A stretch of 64,000 nucleotides of DNA from Escherichia coli. GTDB taxonomy: Bacteria > Pseudomonadota > Gammaproteobacteria > Enterobacterales > Enterobacteriaceae. The stretch's first letter is position 1; each line of letters opens with the position of its first letter. The position numbers and the translations under genes were made by a program. Positions 51,722 through 63,705 of the stretch are shown here, piece after piece. The notes under the pieces are model-generated. The model was not told where the DNA came from, searched no databases, and was given only the letters and a program-made list of their open reading frames with translations. Where the stretch lies: assembly GCF_017348835.2 (NCBI RefSeq), contig NZ_CP071375.1; one strand, given 5' to 3'.

Positions 51722-53965
51722 TCAGGCACTTTCGCGAATGGGTTCGATTTCATTCAGCGTATCAATTAACGGTTGCGGCTTACCAATAAGATAACCCTGC
51801 ATATAATCGATCCCCAAAGAGAGCACTGCCTCGCGGATCTCTTCGTTTTCAACGTACTCTGCCACTACCAGCATTTTCTTCATTCGCGCCAGGTGGCAAA
51901 TCGATGCCACTATCTGATAATCCAGACTATTTGACACAATATTGCGGATAAAACTGCCGTCAATTTTAAGCAGATCGGCATTCACATTTTTAAGCCGCGC
52001 ATAGCTGGCGTAGCCGGTGCCGAAATCATCAATCGCAATCTGGCAGCCTAATTCCTGAAGATGCTGCAAGGTGATTTGCGCCTGCTTAACATTGGTCAGA
52101 GCATTACTTTCGGTGACTTCAAAAATAAGTTGCCACGCTTCAATCTGATATTTAGCCAGCAACTGACTGACTTCAACAGGAAAACGAGCCTGACATACCG
52201 AGGTTGGAGACAGATTAATAGCAAAACGGTGAGCGGGCATCTTCGCTCTGTTTTCAGCCATAAATTGCAGCGTATGCTCAATGACCCACATGTCGATACT
52301 CGACGATAAACCAAATTCGTGCGCGACCGGCAAGAAGCTATCGGGGCTGATCAGTTCATCATTCTCACCTTTCATGCGCAGAAGAATTTCATGGTAAACA
52401 TCACCACGCATACCGGTAATTGGCTGGGCCATCAGGAAAAAATGGTTGTGTTCCAGCGCCTGCTGTAGTCGATTCATCATCGCGACTTTATCTTTCAATT
52501 CGCGTTGCAAATACATTGCCCCGCGACGCTGCATATTTTCCGGGGCGTTGGTCACGATGGAAAGTTCGGCGACCGTATTTAGCTCTCCCAGCAGCAGGTA
52601 GATATAATTCACTGGCGAGCGCACATAGCAGTAACTGACGCCAATCTGCGGTTGCATCGGCATGCCATCCCAAAAGAAACGAAATTGCTTGAGATGGCTA
52701 TCCAGTGCGGTAATGCGCTCCTGGTGCGATTCTGTATTCAGTCGCAGCGCGAGATCGTTACCCGAAAGCTGATAAACATCTTCACCCGGTTCCAGCAATG
52801 GTGACAGCCAGTGAGAAAGTTTTTGCTTGTATTGAATCCGCAGCATGATGCCATAGTTTTTAACCAGCATTTCCATGCCAGGGATGCGTAAATAACAAAG
52901 CGCAGACCAGGGGGCATCACGCAACGCGCGATTCAGGGCGCGAACATTTGGCAGATGAACCACCGGGTCCACATACGCAAGCCGCTGAATGCGTCTGACT
53001 ACCGTTCTCTGACGGGTTGCCAGTACAGCCATATAATTGACAATAAAAGAGAATACCAGATAACTGGAGGAGGTTATGGTCAGCTGCGTGGTATAGCCGG
53101 GATAAATGGGAATGTAATTTTGATAGCTGTGGATGCTGATCATCAACACGACCGCCCAGAGCAGTGAAATCAGCTTATAACCATAGCGCATCGCTCCCCA
53201 CATCATCAGGGGCAGCAATAATGACAAGGTATAATTGGTGCTAAAAATTGTGCTTTTTTCATTTAACGGCATGCATAACAGCAACAGTAAAGCACCTAAT
53301 GCCAGTAGCCAGAGTGCGAACTCTTTTTTGGTGACTTTGACATCAACCTGCTGTTTTAATTGCGAATAATAACTACGTAAATAAAACGGATTTCGAACTA
53401 CCCGAATGATGAAGTAGCACAGCGGGACACCAATCAGATTGCCCACCAGTAAGGCCTGATAATTGATTAAAGTCCCGAGGTTAAAAGGCATGACACCGAC
53501 CAGATTTTCTCTGCTCGCCAGTAATCCTACAAATGCAGCAAACTGGAAAAGTATCAGAAACAGCGTTGCAGGAAACACAATCTGCCAGAATATACGCTGG
53601 GAAATTAAACGGGTATCACCATGTGAAACGTTGTTACGCCGGGGAGTAAAGACCCTGTAACCGCCCCAACAGAGAATGATAATGATGATAAAATTAGCCG
53701 TTAATGAGAGCGTTTCGTAAAAACCCAGCTCTGCATATTTGCGGACAAAAATCCCTAAGGCGATCCCTGGCAATGCCGCCCAGCTGAAAAACATCATCAT
53801 GCTGATCATCAGTGCCAAAGGCAGATAAAAGAGAAAAACCTCACCGGAAGAAATATGCGCGAAAGTATTAATGTGGGCGAAAATAGGCAAGATTAAAGAA
53901 GGCAGGAACAGCGGAAGCCCCCACCATTTATCACGTATTTTTATATAAGTTGCATTCAGTTTCAT
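51722..53965 (-). CDS. pdeF: Membrane-anchored cyclic-di-GMP phosphodiesterase (degenerate GGDEF plus EAL domain) YfgF/PdeF
   Basis: 747-aa ORF with an N-terminal multi-TM region and a C-terminal EAL domain (EVTES ... DDFGTGYAS). Confidence 0.9.
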   Translation of the reverse strand: MKLNATYIKIRDKWWGLPLFLPSLILPIFAHINTFAHISSGEVFLFYLPLALMISMMMFFSWAALPGIALGIFVRKYAELGFYETLSLTANFIIIIILCWGGYRVFTPRRNNVSHGDTRLISQRIFWQIVFPATLFLILFQFAAFVGLLASRENLVGVMPFNLGTLINYQALLVGNLIGVPLCYFIIRVVRNPFYLRSYYSQLKQQVDVKVTKKEFALWLLALGALLLLLCMPLNEKSTIFSTNYTLSLLLPLMMWGAMRYGYKLISLLWAVVLMISIHSYQNYIPIYPGYTTQLTITSSSYLVFSFIVNYMAVLATRQRTVVRRIQRLAYVDPVVHLPNVRALNRALRDAPWSALCYLRIPGMEMLVKNYGIMLRIQYKQKLSHWLSPLLEPGEDVYQLSGNDLALRLNTESHQERITALDSHLKQFRFFWDGMPMQPQIGVSYCYVRSPVNYIYLLLGELNTVAELSIVTNAPENMQRRGAMYLQRELKDKVAMMNRLQQALEHNHFFLMAQPITGMRGDVYHEILLRMKGENDELISPDSFLPVAHEFGLSSSIDMWVIEHTLQFMAENRAKMPAHRFAINLSPTSVCQARFPVEVSQLLAKYQIEAWQLIFEVTESNALTNVKQAQITLQHLQELGCQIAIDDFGTGYASYARLKNVNADLLKIDGSFIRNIVSNSLDYQIVASICHLARMKKMLVVAEYVENEEIREAVLSLGIDYMQGYLIGKPQPLIDTLNEIEPIRESA

Positions 53966-54601: not shown

Positions 54602-54928
54602 ATGACTAAAAATACTCGTTTTTCCCCCGAAGTCCGTCAGCGGGCGATTCGTATGGTTCTGGAAAGTCAGGATGAATATGACTCACAGTGGGCGGCAATT
54701 TGTTCCATTGCCCCAAAGATTGGCTGTACGCCGGAGACTCTGCGTGTCTGGGTTCGCCAGCATGAGCGGGATACCGGGAGTGGTGATGGTGGACTCACCA
54801 CCGCTGAACGTCAGCGTCTGAAAGAGCTGGAACGTGAAAATCGTGAACTGCGCCGCAGTAACGATATCCTTCGCCAGGCTTCCGCTTATTTTGCGAAGGC
54901 GGAGTTCGACCGCCTCTGGAAAAAATAA
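54602..54928 (+). CDS. IS3-family transposase OrfA (HTH DNA-binding part)
   Basis: 108-aa [33 protein letters not shown]... with a leucine-zipper-like C-terminus; A-rich slippery run (ggaaaaaataatg) at its 3' end. Confidence 0.85.
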
Positions 54929-55815
54929 TGCCACTGCTGGATAAGCTGCGTGAGCAGTACGGGGTCGGACCGGTATGCAGCGAACTGCATATTGCCCCGT
55001 CAACGTATTACCATTGTCAGCAACAGCGACATCATCCGGATAAACGCAGTGCCCGTGCGCAGCACGATGACTGGCTGAAGAAAGAGATACAGCGCGTATA
55101 CGATGAAAATCACCAGGTATACGGTGTGCGTAAAGTCTGGCGTCAGTTGTTACGGGAAGGTATCAGAGTGGCCAGATGCACTGTGGCACGTCTCATGGCA
55201 GTTATGGGACTTGCCGGTGTTCTCCGGGGTAAAAAGGTCCGCACTACCGTCAGCCGGAAAGCCGTTGCCGCATGCGACCGCGTAAACCGTCAGTTCGTGG
55301 CAGAACGTCCAGACCAGTTGTGGGTGGCTGATTTTACCTGGGTAAGCACATGGCAGGGCTTCGTTTATGTGGCGTTCATCATTGATGTGTTCGCCGGATA
55401 CATCGTGGGATGGCAGGTCTCATCATCCATGGAAACAACATTCGTGCTGGATGCACTGGAGCAGGCGTTGTGGGCCCGTCGGCCGTCCGGCACAATCCAT
55501 CACAGTGATAAAGGTTCTCAGTATGTATCGCTGGCCTACACGCAGCGGCTTAAGGAAGCCGGATTACTGGCATCAACAGGGAGTACTGGCGACTCGTATG
55601 ACAACGCGATGGCTGAGAGCATCAATGGTCTTTACAAAGCGGAGGTAATACACCGTAAGAGCTGGAAAAACCGGACAGAAGTGGAACTGGCCACACTAAC
55701 GTGGGTGGACTGGTATAACAATCGACGATTGCTGGAAAGGCTGGGCCATATTCCTCCGGCAGAAGCAGAAAAAGCTTATTATGCTTCCATCGGAAATAAT
55801 GATCTGGCAGCCTGA
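54928..55815 (+). CDS. IS3-family transposase OrfB (DDE integrase catalytic domain)
   Basis: 295-aa ORF in the -1 frame relative to OrfA; rve/DDE core recognisable (WVADFTWVST ... DKGSQYVS ... DNAMAES). Confidence 0.85.
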   Translation: MPLLDKLREQYGVGPVCSELHIAPSTYYHCQQQRHHPDKRSARAQHDDWLKKEIQRVYDENHQVYGVRKVWRQLLREGIRVARCTVARLMAVMGLAGVLRGKKVRTTVSRKAVAACDRVNRQFVAERPDQLWVADFTWVSTWQGFVYVAFIIDVFAGYIVGWQVSSSMETTFVLDALEQALWARRPSGTIHHSDKGSQYVSLAYTQRLKEAGLLASTGSTGDSYDNAMAESINGLYKAEVIHRKSWKNRTEVELATLTWVDWYNNRRLLERLGHIPPAEAEKAYYASIGNNDLAA

Positions 55816-57446: not shown

Positions 57447-57631
57447 TCTCGTTTAGGGCTTGGTTTATTATTACTCCGTAGAGCACATTTATCGTATTTA
57501 TGTTCATCAAATTTATTATCTGGCATCGATAAACAATCTTTATCATTTTTATCGCAAGAACATATGGCCAATAAACTGATCAGAATAAATACAATCAAAA
57601 AATTATCTTTCATTCTGCGTTTCCTCACCAA
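57440..57631 (-). CDS. Small lipoprotein in the TrbK (IncP entry-exclusion) position
   Basis: 63-aa ORF with a hydrophobic leader and Cys-containing lipobox-like motif (LLAICSCDK); overlaps the trbJ stop and trbL start, as trbJ-trbK-trbL does in IncP plasmids. Confidence 0.45.
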   Translation of the reverse strand: MVRKRRMKDNFLIVFILISLLAICSCDKNDKDCLSMPDNKFDEHKYDKCALRSNNKPSPKREW

Positions 57632-58419
57632 ATTCGCTTCGGGCTTGGTGTATTCTCTCCAGCTAACGCTTTTTCATCAGCGGCTATCTGTTGTGATTCT
57701 TTATCTGCCTGAGCCTGTGCCAGTGTTGCTGCAGCGTTTTGTTGGGCTACCAGAAGTGAGCGGATTTGCAGTAACTGATTTGTCTGTGCACTGGCAAGCT
57801 GGTTTGCCGCCTGAATAGCTTCCATTTGCCCTTGTGCGCCGCTTGCCTGAGTTTGTAATTCGGCAAGATTATCAGCATCGCTCTGCAGGGTGTTCTGCTG
57901 CTCGTCAATTACCTTAAATACTGCGTCATTGGCCTTTTTACGCGCCCCTGAGCTATTCTGTTCAGCTTCACGCAGTGCACTAATTTCAGACGCGGTACAT
58001 TCAACATTGCTGTTAAAGCAAGACGATGTCCTGTAGTAGTTAACATCCTGATAGCGTTTCAGGTACGCATCGAGACTCCCGGCCTGATTCTTGTAGTAAT
58101 TAAGGGTATCCTGCACCTGCAACAATTTATTAATTGTTGAATTTGCCTGGTCCCAGATATAGGCCGCAGGAGCTACGGTGTTCTGCAGCATGTTTTCATA
58201 CTGCTGCAGCTGCGTCTGGTACTGCTGGATTTGTTTAGTCACAGCCTGAACGTTGTTAACTGCGCTGATTGTGGTCTGAACCACATTAGTGCCATCAATA
58301 ACGGGAATTCCGGCCTTCACCGGTAATGCCATGACGGACGCCACGAAAGGAACTATTAAAGCTTTTTTAGCGGCTAAAATCCCTCTTTGTGATGAAACCA
58401 CTCGGAACTTTAAATTCAT
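57625..58419 (-). CDS. trbJ: TrbJ/VirB5-family conjugative transfer protein
   Basis: 264-aa ORF with signal peptide and Gln/Ala-rich coiled-coil stretches typical of TrbJ/VirB5 minor pilus/adhesin proteins. Confidence 0.6.
   Translation of the reverse strand: MNLKFRVVSSQRGILAAKKALIVPFVASVMALPVKAGIPVIDGTNVVQTTISAVNNVQAVTKQIQQYQTQLQQYENMLQNTVAPAAYIWDQANSTINKLLQVQDTLNYYKNQAGSLDAYLKRYQDVNYYRTSSCFNSNVECTASEISALREAEQNSSGARKKANDAVFKVIDEQQNTLQSDADNLAELQTQASGAQGQMEAIQAANQLASAQTNQLLQIRSLLVAQQNAAATLAQAQADKESQQIAADEKALAGENTPSPKRIW
58365..58379. promoter_or_regulatory. KorB-operator-like palindrome TTTTAGCGGCTAAAA (copy 1, inside the 5' end of trbJ)
   Basis: Perfect inverted repeat containing TTTAGCGGCTAAA, identical to the IncP-1 KorB operator consensus TTTAGC(G/C)GCTAAA. 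Confidence 0.6.
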
Positions 58420-59252: not shown

Positions 59253-59265
59253 TTTAGCGGCTAAA
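59253..59265. promoter_or_regulatory. KorB-operator-like palindrome (copy 2)
   Basis: aTTTTAGCGGCTAAAATc; exact match to the IncP-1 KorB operator core, in the 675-bp intergenic region. Confidence 0.6.
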
Positions 59266-61151: not shown

Positions 61152-61403
61152 TTACCTACCTAAAACAATACCGGGTCTGGCTGCTTTAAACATTGCTGAT
61201 TTACGATCCGCAATCCACTGTTCCACTTCGGATAACTGCCATGCAACATTTCGGCTCGTAAGTGCTATACGGCGAGGAAACTCGCCTCGCTGTTCAAGGT
61301 TATAAATAGTGCGGGCTGACAATGGGATCATTTCCAGAAGTGTTTTTCTGTTAATGAGCGTGCTATGTGCCTTTGTTTGCATCTGCCTTCCTCCTGTTTC
61401 CAA
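61152..61403 (-). CDS. alpA: AlpA-family prophage/island transcriptional regulator (excisionase-like)
   Basis: 83-aa ORF with the AlpA HTH signature (LSARTIYNLEQRGEFPRRIALTSRNVAWQLSEVEQWI). Confidence 0.7.
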   Translation of the reverse strand: METGGRQMQTKAHSTLINRKTLLEMIPLSARTIYNLEQRGEFPRRIALTSRNVAWQLSEVEQWIADRKSAMFKAARPGIVLGR

Positions 61404-61459
61404 TCAGGCCTATACAATGCCAAGCATTACCACTTGCTAAAACCTATTCATTGGCTAAA

Positions 61460-62431
61460 ATGGTTGACATGAAAATTACTATCTGGGAAGGCTGTGACCT
61501 CACAGTTGCAGCTGCAATTAAATTATTTGTAGAGCGTAGTTCTCCGTACTCCATATTTTCACGGAGGTATCCAATACTGCGTCTCATACAGGAAGTTATT
61601 GATCCAGCAGTAGCTGATTATGTAAATTCCCTGCCACCAAGTCATAAAGACTACATTTCTGGAGTAAATCTAGGATTTAGTGAAGTACTTAAAAAATTGG
61701 GTTTAAACGTCGTAGTACAGGCACAAAGACTTCTTTTGCGTAATTTCGTTCTGACTTTAGATCAACAAACTTCTCTTGATAAATGCTTTACCGCTACGAT
61801 TGAGTCTCTTATTGAATTAGTCAGTGAATGCGCATCCAAGCGGCCGAAGAAATCCTCTCCTGCAAAAGGAGTAACTATAAATTCACAGCGTAAGCTCGGT
61901 TATTGCGAGTTCTGCGGTAATCTAACCGAATTTTCCAAGTTGATCAGTGAGATATCAGAATTTGTTGCTAACGATAATGAGTTCCCCGTTCATGAAAAAC
62001 AGGTCCTTAGTCATCGATATTGTTCTGACCATAGGCCCAAACTCACCAATGGTCTATGGAATCCCAAATACAGACAAGGAAAGCGGTCTCTCGAACAGTT
62101 CAATAAAGAATTAATAAGGCTTAGACGGCAATGCGCTAAACCTCATAAAGCTAACGCAAACACAGGGGATATATTGATTGATACATATTTTCATGAGTGG
62201 ATGCAGGGTCAAACTTTAACCCCAGCAGATCTAGATAAACTTAGGAATATCGCCAGACGAATGGTTGACTCCAAATTCACTGATACTAAGAAAAAAATAA
62301 TCATATTAAAACACCAAGGTTTTAACCAGTTTGAAACCGCACAGGTTTTAGAAAAAAATCACTACACAACTATGACAAAGCAGGCTGTGTCCAAGGCCTT
62401 AGCGTCTGTGAGGAAAGAATTTTATATTTAA
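61460..62431 (+). CDS. Hypothetical protein with Cys/His cluster and C-terminal helix-turn-helix
   Basis: ORF track starts at 61367, overlapping alpA; a more plausible start is the ATG at 61460 (MVDMKITIW). Contains CEFCGN ... HRYCSDH and a C-terminal HTH-like segment; no family recognised. Confidence 0.45.
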   Translation: MVDMKITIWEGCDLTVAAAIKLFVERSSPYSIFSRRYPILRLIQEVIDPAVADYVNSLPPSHKDYISGVNLGFSEVLKKLGLNVVVQAQRLLLRNFVLTLDQQTSLDKCFTATIESLIELVSECASKRPKKSSPAKGVTINSQRKLGYCEFCGNLTEFSKLISEISEFVANDNEFPVHEKQVLSHRYCSDHRPKLTNGLWNPKYRQGKRSLEQFNKELIRLRRQCAKPHKANANTGDILIDTYFHEWMQGQTLTPADLDKLRNIARRMVDSKFTDTKKKIIILKHQGFNQFETAQVLEKNHYTTMTKQAVSKALASVRKEFYI

Positions 62432-62856: not shown

Positions 62857-62869
62857 TTTAGCAGCTAAA
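62857..62869. promoter_or_regulatory. KorB-operator-like palindrome (copy 3, central A variant)
   Basis: aTTTTAGCAGCTAAAATt; same arms with a central A instead of G/C. Confidence 0.5.
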
Positions 62870-62900: not shown

Positions 62901-63098
62901 ATGACTAAACCTATTGATTATGTGAATTACCTTGTGAGTAATACTCGTAGGATGGAATCTTCCAAAACTCTGACAATTCACTCTGAATGCATGGTAACAA
63001 AGAACAGTTTAAACCATGGTCTGTTCAGCGTTAAATTTCTCAAGATAGACTTCCATTTCGCGAGTCCACCTAGGGGTAGGTACCGAGGTGATCATTAG
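62901..63098 (+). CDS. Small hypothetical ORF (65 aa), doubtful
   Basis: Begins about 30 bp after KorB-like copy 3 but overlaps the 3' end of the convergent 209-aa ORF; weak ribosome-binding site. Confidence 0.2.
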   Translation: MTKPIDYVNYLVSNTRRMESSKTLTIHSECMVTKNSLNHGLFSVKFLKIDFHFASPPRGRYRGDH

Positions 63099-63638
63099 CC
63101 AAGGAAACCACCATACAAGCATGAAGAGTAACATAAGCGGTGCGATCATTTCGGCCGAAGAATGAGAAACTATATACATAATGAATAATATTAGTAGAAC
63201 TGTGTTTACAATCTGACCTACCAGAAAAAGACGCCAGCGAAAACAATGCCATTTCCTGTTGAACACAATCCGTCCATCCCGTTCTTCGAGCCAGTTACGC
63301 CACGGCTTGAGATAACCAGCCCGCAACCCATAACGATCACACATTATTACAGCCAAATCCTGCAGCCGATAATTATACAAGCCTGTGAGCCGATAAAGGC
63401 TGCGCTGACGAAGCTCACGCTTTGCCAGACGGACCGCATTTTTATTCAAATATGGCTGTGTCAGCATTTGCTCTAGCCGGCGCTTCCTAAGATTGAGTAG
63501 TCCACGAAATACACTTCCAGATTCAGCATTAATTACTCTGTGACGAACTACACCGAGTGCAATATAGATACACAGCAATAGCCAGCCGGTCTTAGGGTAT
63601 TGATTCATCCATTGTATAATTACAGACAACTCAGGCAC
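63009..63638 (-). CDS. Hypothetical membrane protein (209 aa)
   Basis: Two to three predicted TM helices separated by an Arg-rich loop; KorB-like copy 4 lies about 55 bp upstream of its start; no family recognised. Confidence 0.5.
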   Translation of the reverse strand: MPELSVIIQWMNQYPKTGWLLLCIYIALGVVRHRVINAESGSVFRGLLNLRKRRLEQMLTQPYLNKNAVRLAKRELRQRSLYRLTGLYNYRLQDLAVIMCDRYGLRAGYLKPWRNWLEERDGRIVFNRKWHCFRWRLFLVGQIVNTVLLILFIMYIVSHSSAEMIAPLMLLFMLVWWFPWLMITSVPTPRWTREMEVYLEKFNAEQTMV

Positions 63639-63692: not shown

Positions 63693-63705
63693 TTTAGCGG
63701 CTAAA
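63693..63705. promoter_or_regulatory. KorB-operator-like palindrome (copy 4)
   Basis: aTTTTAGCGGCTAAAATt, between the 209-aa membrane protein gene and the integrase gene. Confidence 0.6.

Follow-up and report, generated by a model that had tools for sequence, protein, structure and literature searches.

A conserved TTG...GTTGAC element in the divergent alpA/luxR control region of an Escherichia coli PIME1 island: a probable binding site of the island's own regulator

We describe the control region that separates alpA from a divergently oriented luxR-family regulator gene in a 64,000-nucleotide (nt) stretch of DNA from Escherichia coli (NCBI RefSeq assembly GCF_017348835.2, contig NZ_CP071375.1), referred to throughout as the window. 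Positions 61383-61468 of the window are the divergent alpA/luxR control region of a PIME1 island. An original prediction, made from the letters of the window, had singled out this region for two copies of the word GCTAAAA, read as half-sites of the KorB operator, and had proposed that a regulator bound there might control excision and cargo together. We find that the region holds a bipartite element, TTG-N9-GTTGAC, which relatives of the island conserve and to which the regulator encoded by the island itself probably binds. The features of the region and its surroundings are as follows:

61152..61382, minus strand: alpA, 76 amino acids (aa), Phage_AlpA family, heading the leftward alpA-repA operon (RefSeq coding sequence)
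61390..61395, minus strand: Shine-Dalgarno sequence AGGAGG of alpA, 7 nt before the alpA ATG
61408..61430, minus strand: Block 1, the promoter-proximal part of the alpA control region, consensus GCATTGCnnGGCACCATnAGGCA in the alpA direction
61434..61439, plus strand: predicted -35 hexamer TTGCTA of the luxR-family gene promoter, from the promoter scan, overlapping GCTAAAA copy 1
61444..61471, plus strand: Block 2, the composite element CTATTCATTGGCTAAAATGGTTGAC(ATG), candidate site of the PIME1 regulator, from column conservation and the weight matrix
61456..61461, plus strand: predicted -10 hexamer TAAAAT of the same promoter, from the promoter scan, overlapping GCTAAAA copy 2
61469..62431, plus strand: luxR-family regulator gene, 320 aa from the conserved ATG (PGAP start 61460)
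62857..62869, no strand: KorB-type operator TTTAGCAGCTAAA, the nearest to the control region at 1.39 kb from 61469 and not part of the promoter

Direct reading bears out that alpA, on the minus strand, and the helix-turn-helix (HTH) gene, on the plus strand, are divergent. The overlap of their annotated 5' ends, which the original prediction also described, is an artefact of open reading frame (ORF) calling and arises solely from the longest mechanical ORFs, which begin at TTG 61403 for alpA and at GTG 61367 for the HTH gene. RefSeq places alpA at 61152-61382 and the regulator at 61460-62431, leaving a gap of 77 bp, and from the start that is conserved among homologs of the regulator, ATG 61469, the gap to alpA is 86 bp. 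This ATG is the only start kept across homologs of 43-98% identity, the upstream ATG at 61460 being replaced by ATA, AAA, CTG or TTT in several relatives, and the regulator is 320 aa long when counted from it, 323 aa by PGAP, and not 324. The alpA start codon reads CAT at 61380-61382 in plus-strand letters, its product matches Pfam PF05930 (E=6e-13), and the CCTCC columns of its Shine-Dalgarno sequence are 0.94 conserved in the alignment of relatives.

This alignment covers the upstream DNA of 61 loci in alpha-, beta- and gammaproteobacteria, each with a gene for a homolog of the regulator, and comprises 47 distinct sequences. The most conserved feature is found in Block 2, which directly adjoins the luxR ATG on one side and, on the other, is 81 nt away from the alpA ATG, upstream of it. 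Here TT at 61451-61452 and GTTG at 61463-61466 are invariant (1.00) in all 47 sequences, G 61453 and AC 61467-61468 are conserved above 0.9, and the columns next to TT and GTTG carry less than 0.7 bit. The resulting invariant element, TTG(61451)-N9-GTTGAC(61463), overlaps the second GCTAAAA copy, and the predicted -10 hexamer of the regulator gene falls in its spacer. Judged by these aligned sequences, the TTG...GTTGAC element is real and conserved, and it is previously undescribed.

A position weight matrix (PWM) built from the 25-mer 61444-61468 finds further copies in the relatives, scoring 16-31 bits where the maximum of the chromosomal background is 1.8-14.3 bits per 10 kb. The copies in the relatives lie upstream of two or three operons, those of alpA, repA and trbJ/mob. 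The element is always directed away from the gene presumed to be regulated, with a distance to the start codon of about 80-95 nt (alpA in the window, 81 nt; trbJ in locus L003, ~80 nt). In 16 loci a second copy, 2.6-3.4 kb leftward and immediately ahead of trbJ or a DUF5338-traJ operon, duplicates an entire 75-90-nt module consisting of leader with Shine-Dalgarno sequence of the leftward gene, block GCATTGCnnGGCACCATnAGGCA in the direction of that gene, and 25-mer. A second group of relatives (group B: Xanthomonas, Pseudomonas, Paraburkholderia and others) has a third, inverted copy shortly after the luxR stop. To the right of this copy lies alpA, whose place in group B is between luxR and int and whose upstream region aligns throughout with that of alpA in the window; the flanks of the copy correspond to the alpA leader of group A. 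The module has been reshuffled between the subgroups, since group B brackets luxR with inverted copies of the 25-bp element (L030 4977-5001, L012, L034, L037, L042) and relocates alpA; the gene divergent from luxR in group B is an unrelated 84-aa ORF heading the repA operon. The element is found only in islands that encode the luxR-family protein: by PWM it is absent from GIsul2 loci, which have no luxR, and from the helper plasmid pKJK5, where the best score, 10.4, is below that of the PIME copies. Behind copy 2, four loci (L010, L011, L017, L025) have an ORF that keeps a length of 22 codons (MKKFKPITPTAAAGSLEEQDSR and its variants; for example L010 810-878), and this could be a micro-ORF or a remnant of the luxR start.

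Block 1 likewise recurs: it precedes alpA in group-B relatives, in which alpA flanks luxR on the opposite side, and in copy 2 of group A it precedes trbJ. It holds a -35-like TTGCnn with no canonical -10 after it. A sigma-54 reading of this block (TGGCAC-N5-TTGC) was rejected, the GG-GC spacing being one base off in most relatives and the -12 poor, as was a site for IHF on the minus strand of GGTTGAC, which has two core mismatches and is lost in copy 2. Rfam returned no RNA element in the control region.

Both GCTAAAA copies coincide with hexamers, the -35 and the -10, of a predicted sigma-70 promoter for the luxR-family gene. This site, TTGCTA-16-TAAAAT at 61434-61461 on the plus strand, matches the consensus at 9/12 positions, with a spacer inside the range of 16-18 nt, A at position 2 and T at position 6 of the -10. 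The best plus-strand sigma-70 site of the 150-bp region stands at the same aligned position in 36 of the 47 relatives, and in 30 of those 36 the distance between the -10 and the conserved ATG is exactly 7 nt; the -35 TTG is retained in the relatives with a spacer of 16-17 nt, and the remainder of copy 1 is not conserved. Among distinct copies of the element, a -10-like hexamer is present in 22/29 with luxR after them versus 1/18 without (Fisher p=2e-6), the latter having lost the -10, and usually the -35, and kept TTG and GTTGAC. The 7 nt between the -10 and the ATG (GGTTGAC) contain no Shine-Dalgarno or GGAG-like sequence. Because the -10 ends 7 nt before the ATG and a Shine-Dalgarno sequence is missing, the luxR-family mRNA is probably leaderless or nearly so. 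TTGACA (61464-61469) was considered as the -35 of a downstream start and discarded, as no -10 follows it and residues 6-40 of the protein are conserved, so that they are translated.

The two direct copies themselves are where the original prediction had them, 11 bp apart: CACTTGCTAAAA occupies 61431-61442 and CATTGGCTAAAA 61449-61460, by reading and by a repeat finder, with the 7-mers at 61436-61442 and 61454-61460, 18 bp from start to start. A direct repeat of an exact 7-mer, with copies that do not overlap and are at most 30 bp apart, is present in 10.4% of dinucleotide shuffles of 61381-61470 and, in the actual sequence, in 14.5% of all 90-bp segments and 17.4% of the AT-rich ones; the GCTAAAA repeat is no more than chance. 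The word occurs 18 times in the window (10.7 +/- 3.2 expected), 8 of the 18 being arms of four full palindromes. For two GCTAAAA in 90 bp, a Poisson estimate made post hoc comes to ~1e-4, a value that ignores the promoter-like makeup of the word (TTGCTA / TAAAAT). Among the distinct relatives copy 1 occurs in 2/47, the window itself and a Phytobacter locus 97% identical to it; at this place the nearest of the divergent relatives reads GATAAAA and most sequences read TTGATTAAG. Copy 2 occurs in 11/47. The conserved positions inside copy 2 are an A (0.89) and a T (0.83), which are positions of the -10 hexamer, and the G and C of the supposed half-site reach just 0.55 and 0.66. Conservation in related islands, on which the original prediction had made its half-sites depend, is lacking, and with direct orientation and no second arm the copies do not qualify as halves of KorB operators. 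The alignment marks them as a lineage-specific coincidence on promoter hexamers, which looked meaningful because the island carries four perfect KorB-type operators.

This island makes up the last 6.4 kb of the window and is an integrative mobilizable element of the PIME1 subfamily, truncated and inserted at guaA. Its sequence matches a segment beside guaA in E. coli PE164 at 100% identity and about 30 other E. coli chromosomes at 94-99%, and a full 22-kb relative with defence cargo is found in E. coli RM10042. The gene order is int, the gene of a 209-aa membrane protein, the luxR-family gene, alpA, the gene of a RepA-type helicase, a 257-aa gene, traJ, trbJ and trbL; Pfam and RefSeq annotation thereby supply the whole PIME1 set of int, alpA, replicase, trbJ, trbL, a divergent luxR-family gene and guaA. 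An IS3-family element cuts the island after trbL, with loss of the cargo half (54602-55815, 51722-53965), and the annotation of the identical strain PE164 lists the neighbouring pdeF as a pseudogene. The 209-aa predicted membrane protein (63009-63638, minus strand), between luxR and int, has no family match and is restricted to the E. coli subgroup. The traJ leader contains the Rfam traJ-II RNA motif RF01760 (58883-58981, minus strand, 86.9 bits, E=2e-16).

Perta et al. (bioRxiv 2026, 10.64898/2026.01.12.698999) describe PIME islands from ~100 Pseudomonadota species, which carry defence and resistance genes, and characterise the PIME1 subfamily by integration at guaA with the divergent alpA/luxR pair as its hallmark. 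In their work the IncP-1 plasmids pB10 and pKJK5 induce PIME1 excision, as was shown for the elements of E. coli RHB23-C07 and M. morganii and not for the truncated copy of the window; each of int, luxR and alpA is required for both excision and replication; the E. coli PIME1 is induced by pB10 and pKJK5 without being mobilized by them; and a drop in pB10 copy number is reported. The same preprint states that how PIME1 senses its helper is unknown, and makes no mention of KorB, operators, a promoter or a repeated cis-element in the alpA/luxR region. As the PIME1 hallmark, with both of its regulators essential for excision (10.64898/2026.01.12.698999), the region is a real divergent control region, as had been proposed. 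The island TrbJ (57625-58419, minus strand) is 84-87% identical to the TrbJ of ~110 enterobacterial IncP plasmids of 41-57 kb (for example KX377410 and MF136778) and just 57-59% identical to those of R751 and pKJK5. Given this likeness, the natural helpers may be the 41-57 kb plasmids, and the failure of pB10 and pKJK5 to mobilize the E. coli PIME1 that they induce could be explained in this way.

The four perfect KorB operators (OB) of the island, TTTAGC(G/A)GCTAAA, lie at 58366-58378, 59253-59265, 62857-62869 and 63693-63705, in an island without a korB gene, and their core is identical to the RK2 OB oligonucleotide of PMC11790492. A search with the 13-bp OB at up to 2 mismatches returned these four full sites and two chance hits, none of them in 61381-61470. 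A perfect 13-bp OB is present in 59/65 related loci; its distance past the luxR stop is usually -5 to +27 bp, between convergent luxR and int, or else about 320-360 bp. The KorA operator (OA), GTTTAGCTAAAC, has no occurrence in the island at up to 2 mismatches, its core is absent from 64/66 loci, and copy 2 of GCTAAAA matches the 12-bp palindrome at 8/12 positions by reading. The operator at 63693-63705 lies 55 bp upstream of the start of the 209-aa protein. The one within the first trbJ codons (58366-58378) has a counterpart at the homologous place in pKJK5, at +14 of trbJ, and pKJK5 also has an OB between traJ and traI (pKJK5 sites at L067 11596 and 44380). Because of this homologous place in trbJ, some of the island operators may simply have been inherited with IncP-1-derived genes. 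The operators could also be helper-sensing sites or a parS-like hijack of IncC/KorB partition, and hijacked partition would agree with the lower pB10 copy number that the preprint reports.

The candidate binder of the element is a poorly classified protein. The regulator carries a predicted C-terminal HTH and, in the alignment of homologs, conserved CxxC...CxxH residues; its N-terminal 250 aa match no known family, and the protein has no Pfam or NCBIfam hit, the name 'LuxR-family' coming from NCBI annotation only. Some homologs give HTH_8, HTH_23 or Sigma70_r4_2 hits, and the PDB search gave 8hno as a weak HTH match (E=0.76). The LuxR-family protein, AlpA and the 209-aa product (orf209) showed no significant similarity to KorA, TrbA, KorB or KorC.

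We consider it reasonably likely that the control region consists of a sigma-70 luxR promoter with a superimposed, regulator-bound TTG-N9-GTTGAC element that works by an activator/autorepressor logic. The regulator concerned would be the island's own, most probably the LuxR-family protein. Bound to TTG-N9-GTTGAC at about -45 to -65 of weak leftward promoters, it would activate the excision/replication genes and the transfer genes together, and it would repress its own luxR gene, because the site covers the luxR -10 and the transcription start; the overall logic would be that of a divergent activator/autorepressor. The scheme fits the preprint, in which luxR and alpA are both indispensable and nothing happens without induction, and it leaves helper sensing unexplained. 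Several observations weigh against it. No consistent or canonical sigma-70 site for alpA emerged from the 8 sequences scanned. A second copy of the module is absent from the window, where the PWM gave nothing and local alignments stayed at background (trbJ follows traJ in the window), so that the regulon argument rests on the relatives; and these share ancestry, part of the conservation being inherited rather than selected. On the side of the luxR promoter, the -35 matches at 4/6 positions only, the scan gave 4 promoter sites in 600 bp versus 1.5 +/- 1.2 expected, which makes the hit alone weak, and in three relatives (L026, L046, L050) a perfect TATAAT 20 nt upstream takes its place and implies a short leader. 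Leaderless mRNAs are, moreover, uncommon in enterobacteria. The AlphaFold2 (AF2) model of the candidate binder is weak as well (pLDDT 60), being poor except at residues 270-320.

That the regulated element might be the GCTAAAA words after all, as half-sites through which KorB of an IncP-1 helper, or KorA, whose operator GTTTAGCTAAAC holds the same half, directly controls alpA and the HTH gene, is highly improbable. IncP-1 plasmids do induce this island family, the 9 nt of GGCTAAAAT at copy 2 recur unchanged as right half plus flank in 3/4 full operators, RK2 KorA and TrbA operators typically overlap the -10, and binding of a ParB-family protein to parS-related half motifs in P. aeruginosa is reported by a reference cited in PMC11790492; yet neither word has a dyad partner, no KorA operator lies within 2 mismatches, direct repeats at 18 bp do not suit a dimer on a palindrome, the half-site G and C in copy 2 are poorly conserved (0.55 and 0.66), and words present in 2/47 and 11/47 relatives contrast with full operators that are perfect in 59/65 loci. 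The pKJK5 promoters with OA share 15/20 positions with CATTGGCTAAAATGGTTGAC, which could be counted in favour of the half-sites; the likeness between AAAAAGTTTAGCTAAAACGCTTGAC of pKJK5 and CATTGGCTAAAATGGTTGAC of the window is probably a promoter-like coincidence. Three such pKJK5 promoters (L067 75-99 and 48864-48888; L068, pKJK5 52543) read AAAAAGTTTAGCTAAAACGCTTGAC. A more economical account, which we think unlikely but to which we give some weight, would have no regulator at all: TTG...GTTGAC-ATG would be the luxR core promoter with a leaderless start, and the other copies would be promoters of unannotated small genes or RNAs. The sigma-70 model does account for the -35, the spacer, the -10 and the ATG spacing, and the block ends at an ATG always in copy 1 and often in copy 2 (the 22-codon ORFs of L010, L011, L017 and L025). 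Copies 2 and 3, however, lose the -10 and usually the -35 while TTG and GTTGAC stay invariant, the short ORFs vary by lineage in length (0-131 aa) and sequence, and the orientation and distance of the copies track the start of the opposite gene (81 nt for alpA, ~80 nt for trbJ in L003).

A further account would bring in the full operators as well: helper KorB would load at the operator past the luxR stop, slide about 1-1.4 kb to the control region and be captured there by a protein on TTG...GTTGAC, switching alpA/luxR. In most relatives a perfect operator does follow luxR at a constant location, ~1 kb away from the control region; KorB clamps are able to slide to promoters as far off as 1.5 kb, where a protein at the -10 locks them; and helper sensing by PIME1 lacks an explanation in the preprint (10.64898/2026.01.12.698999). 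Against this, KorB is known only as a repressor, whereas luxR and alpA are needed for induction; there are no KorA operators; the LuxR-family protein, AlpA and orf209 have no detectable similarity to KorA or TrbA; and the operators could equally be inherited with trbJ/traJ, having the same positions in pKJK5, or serve partition. We regard this as improbable, and see the same slim chance that the captor would be the LuxR-family protein or AlpA and that capture would flip the alpA/luxR switch which starts excision. Were it true, the island would use the global repressor of its helper as its induction signal.

With the island's own regulator as the preferred binder, the proposal of a shared regulator site for excision and cargo survives in part. 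A conserved cis-element does lie upstream of excision, replication and transfer operons in the relatives; the GCTAAAA words are not that element, and it would govern core mobility genes and not cargo. Dropping the GCTAAAA idea removes a false lead and puts in its place a 25-bp element with two invariant parts, at every promoter that must fire for excision, replication and transfer. Other targets that emerge are a predicted self-repressed, leaderless regulator gene and conserved full KorB operators within sliding distance. The PIME family has already been described, and what is new here is the conserved element in its control region.

The island of the window resembles the PIME1 subfamily in its guaA insertion, gene set, divergent alpA/luxR pair, E. 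coli host and full length of about 22 kb, and departs from it in being truncated after trbL by IS3. GIsul2 / PIME2 shares the attachment site, related int, alpA (76% DNA identity), repA, trbJ and trbL genes, and an OB inside the 5' end of trbJ; it differs in having no luxR-family gene, in having int directly beside alpA and in the absence of TTG...GTTGAC. With OB (TTTAGCSGCTAAA) and OA (GTTTAGCTAAAC) the control region has in common GCTAAA(A), one arm of both, but the words at 61436 and 61454 are without a second arm, direct rather than inverted, unconserved and placed on promoter hexamers. Divergent activator/autorepressor promoters are the LysR-type arrangement, and leaderless regulator mRNAs are those of lambda cI from PRM and of Tn1721 tetR. 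As in the former, the regulator gene is divergent from its predicted target, and the candidate site precedes the target promoter and covers the -10 and start of the regulator gene itself; as in the latter, the ATG is at the predicted transcription start. Unlike there, the regulator is not of the LysR type, the site has no T-N11-A motif and the arrangement is here a prediction from sequence. In SGI1 the activator is encoded by the helper, and its box is also found on the helper. Like SGI1, with its AcaCD boxes before xis, rep and type IV secretion system (T4SS) subunit genes (PMC5704250), PIME1 depends on a helper plasmid and has one cis-element before excision, replication and transfer-subunit operons; unlike that of SGI1, the PIME1 element is absent from the helper pKJK5 and co-occurs with a regulator that the island itself encodes.

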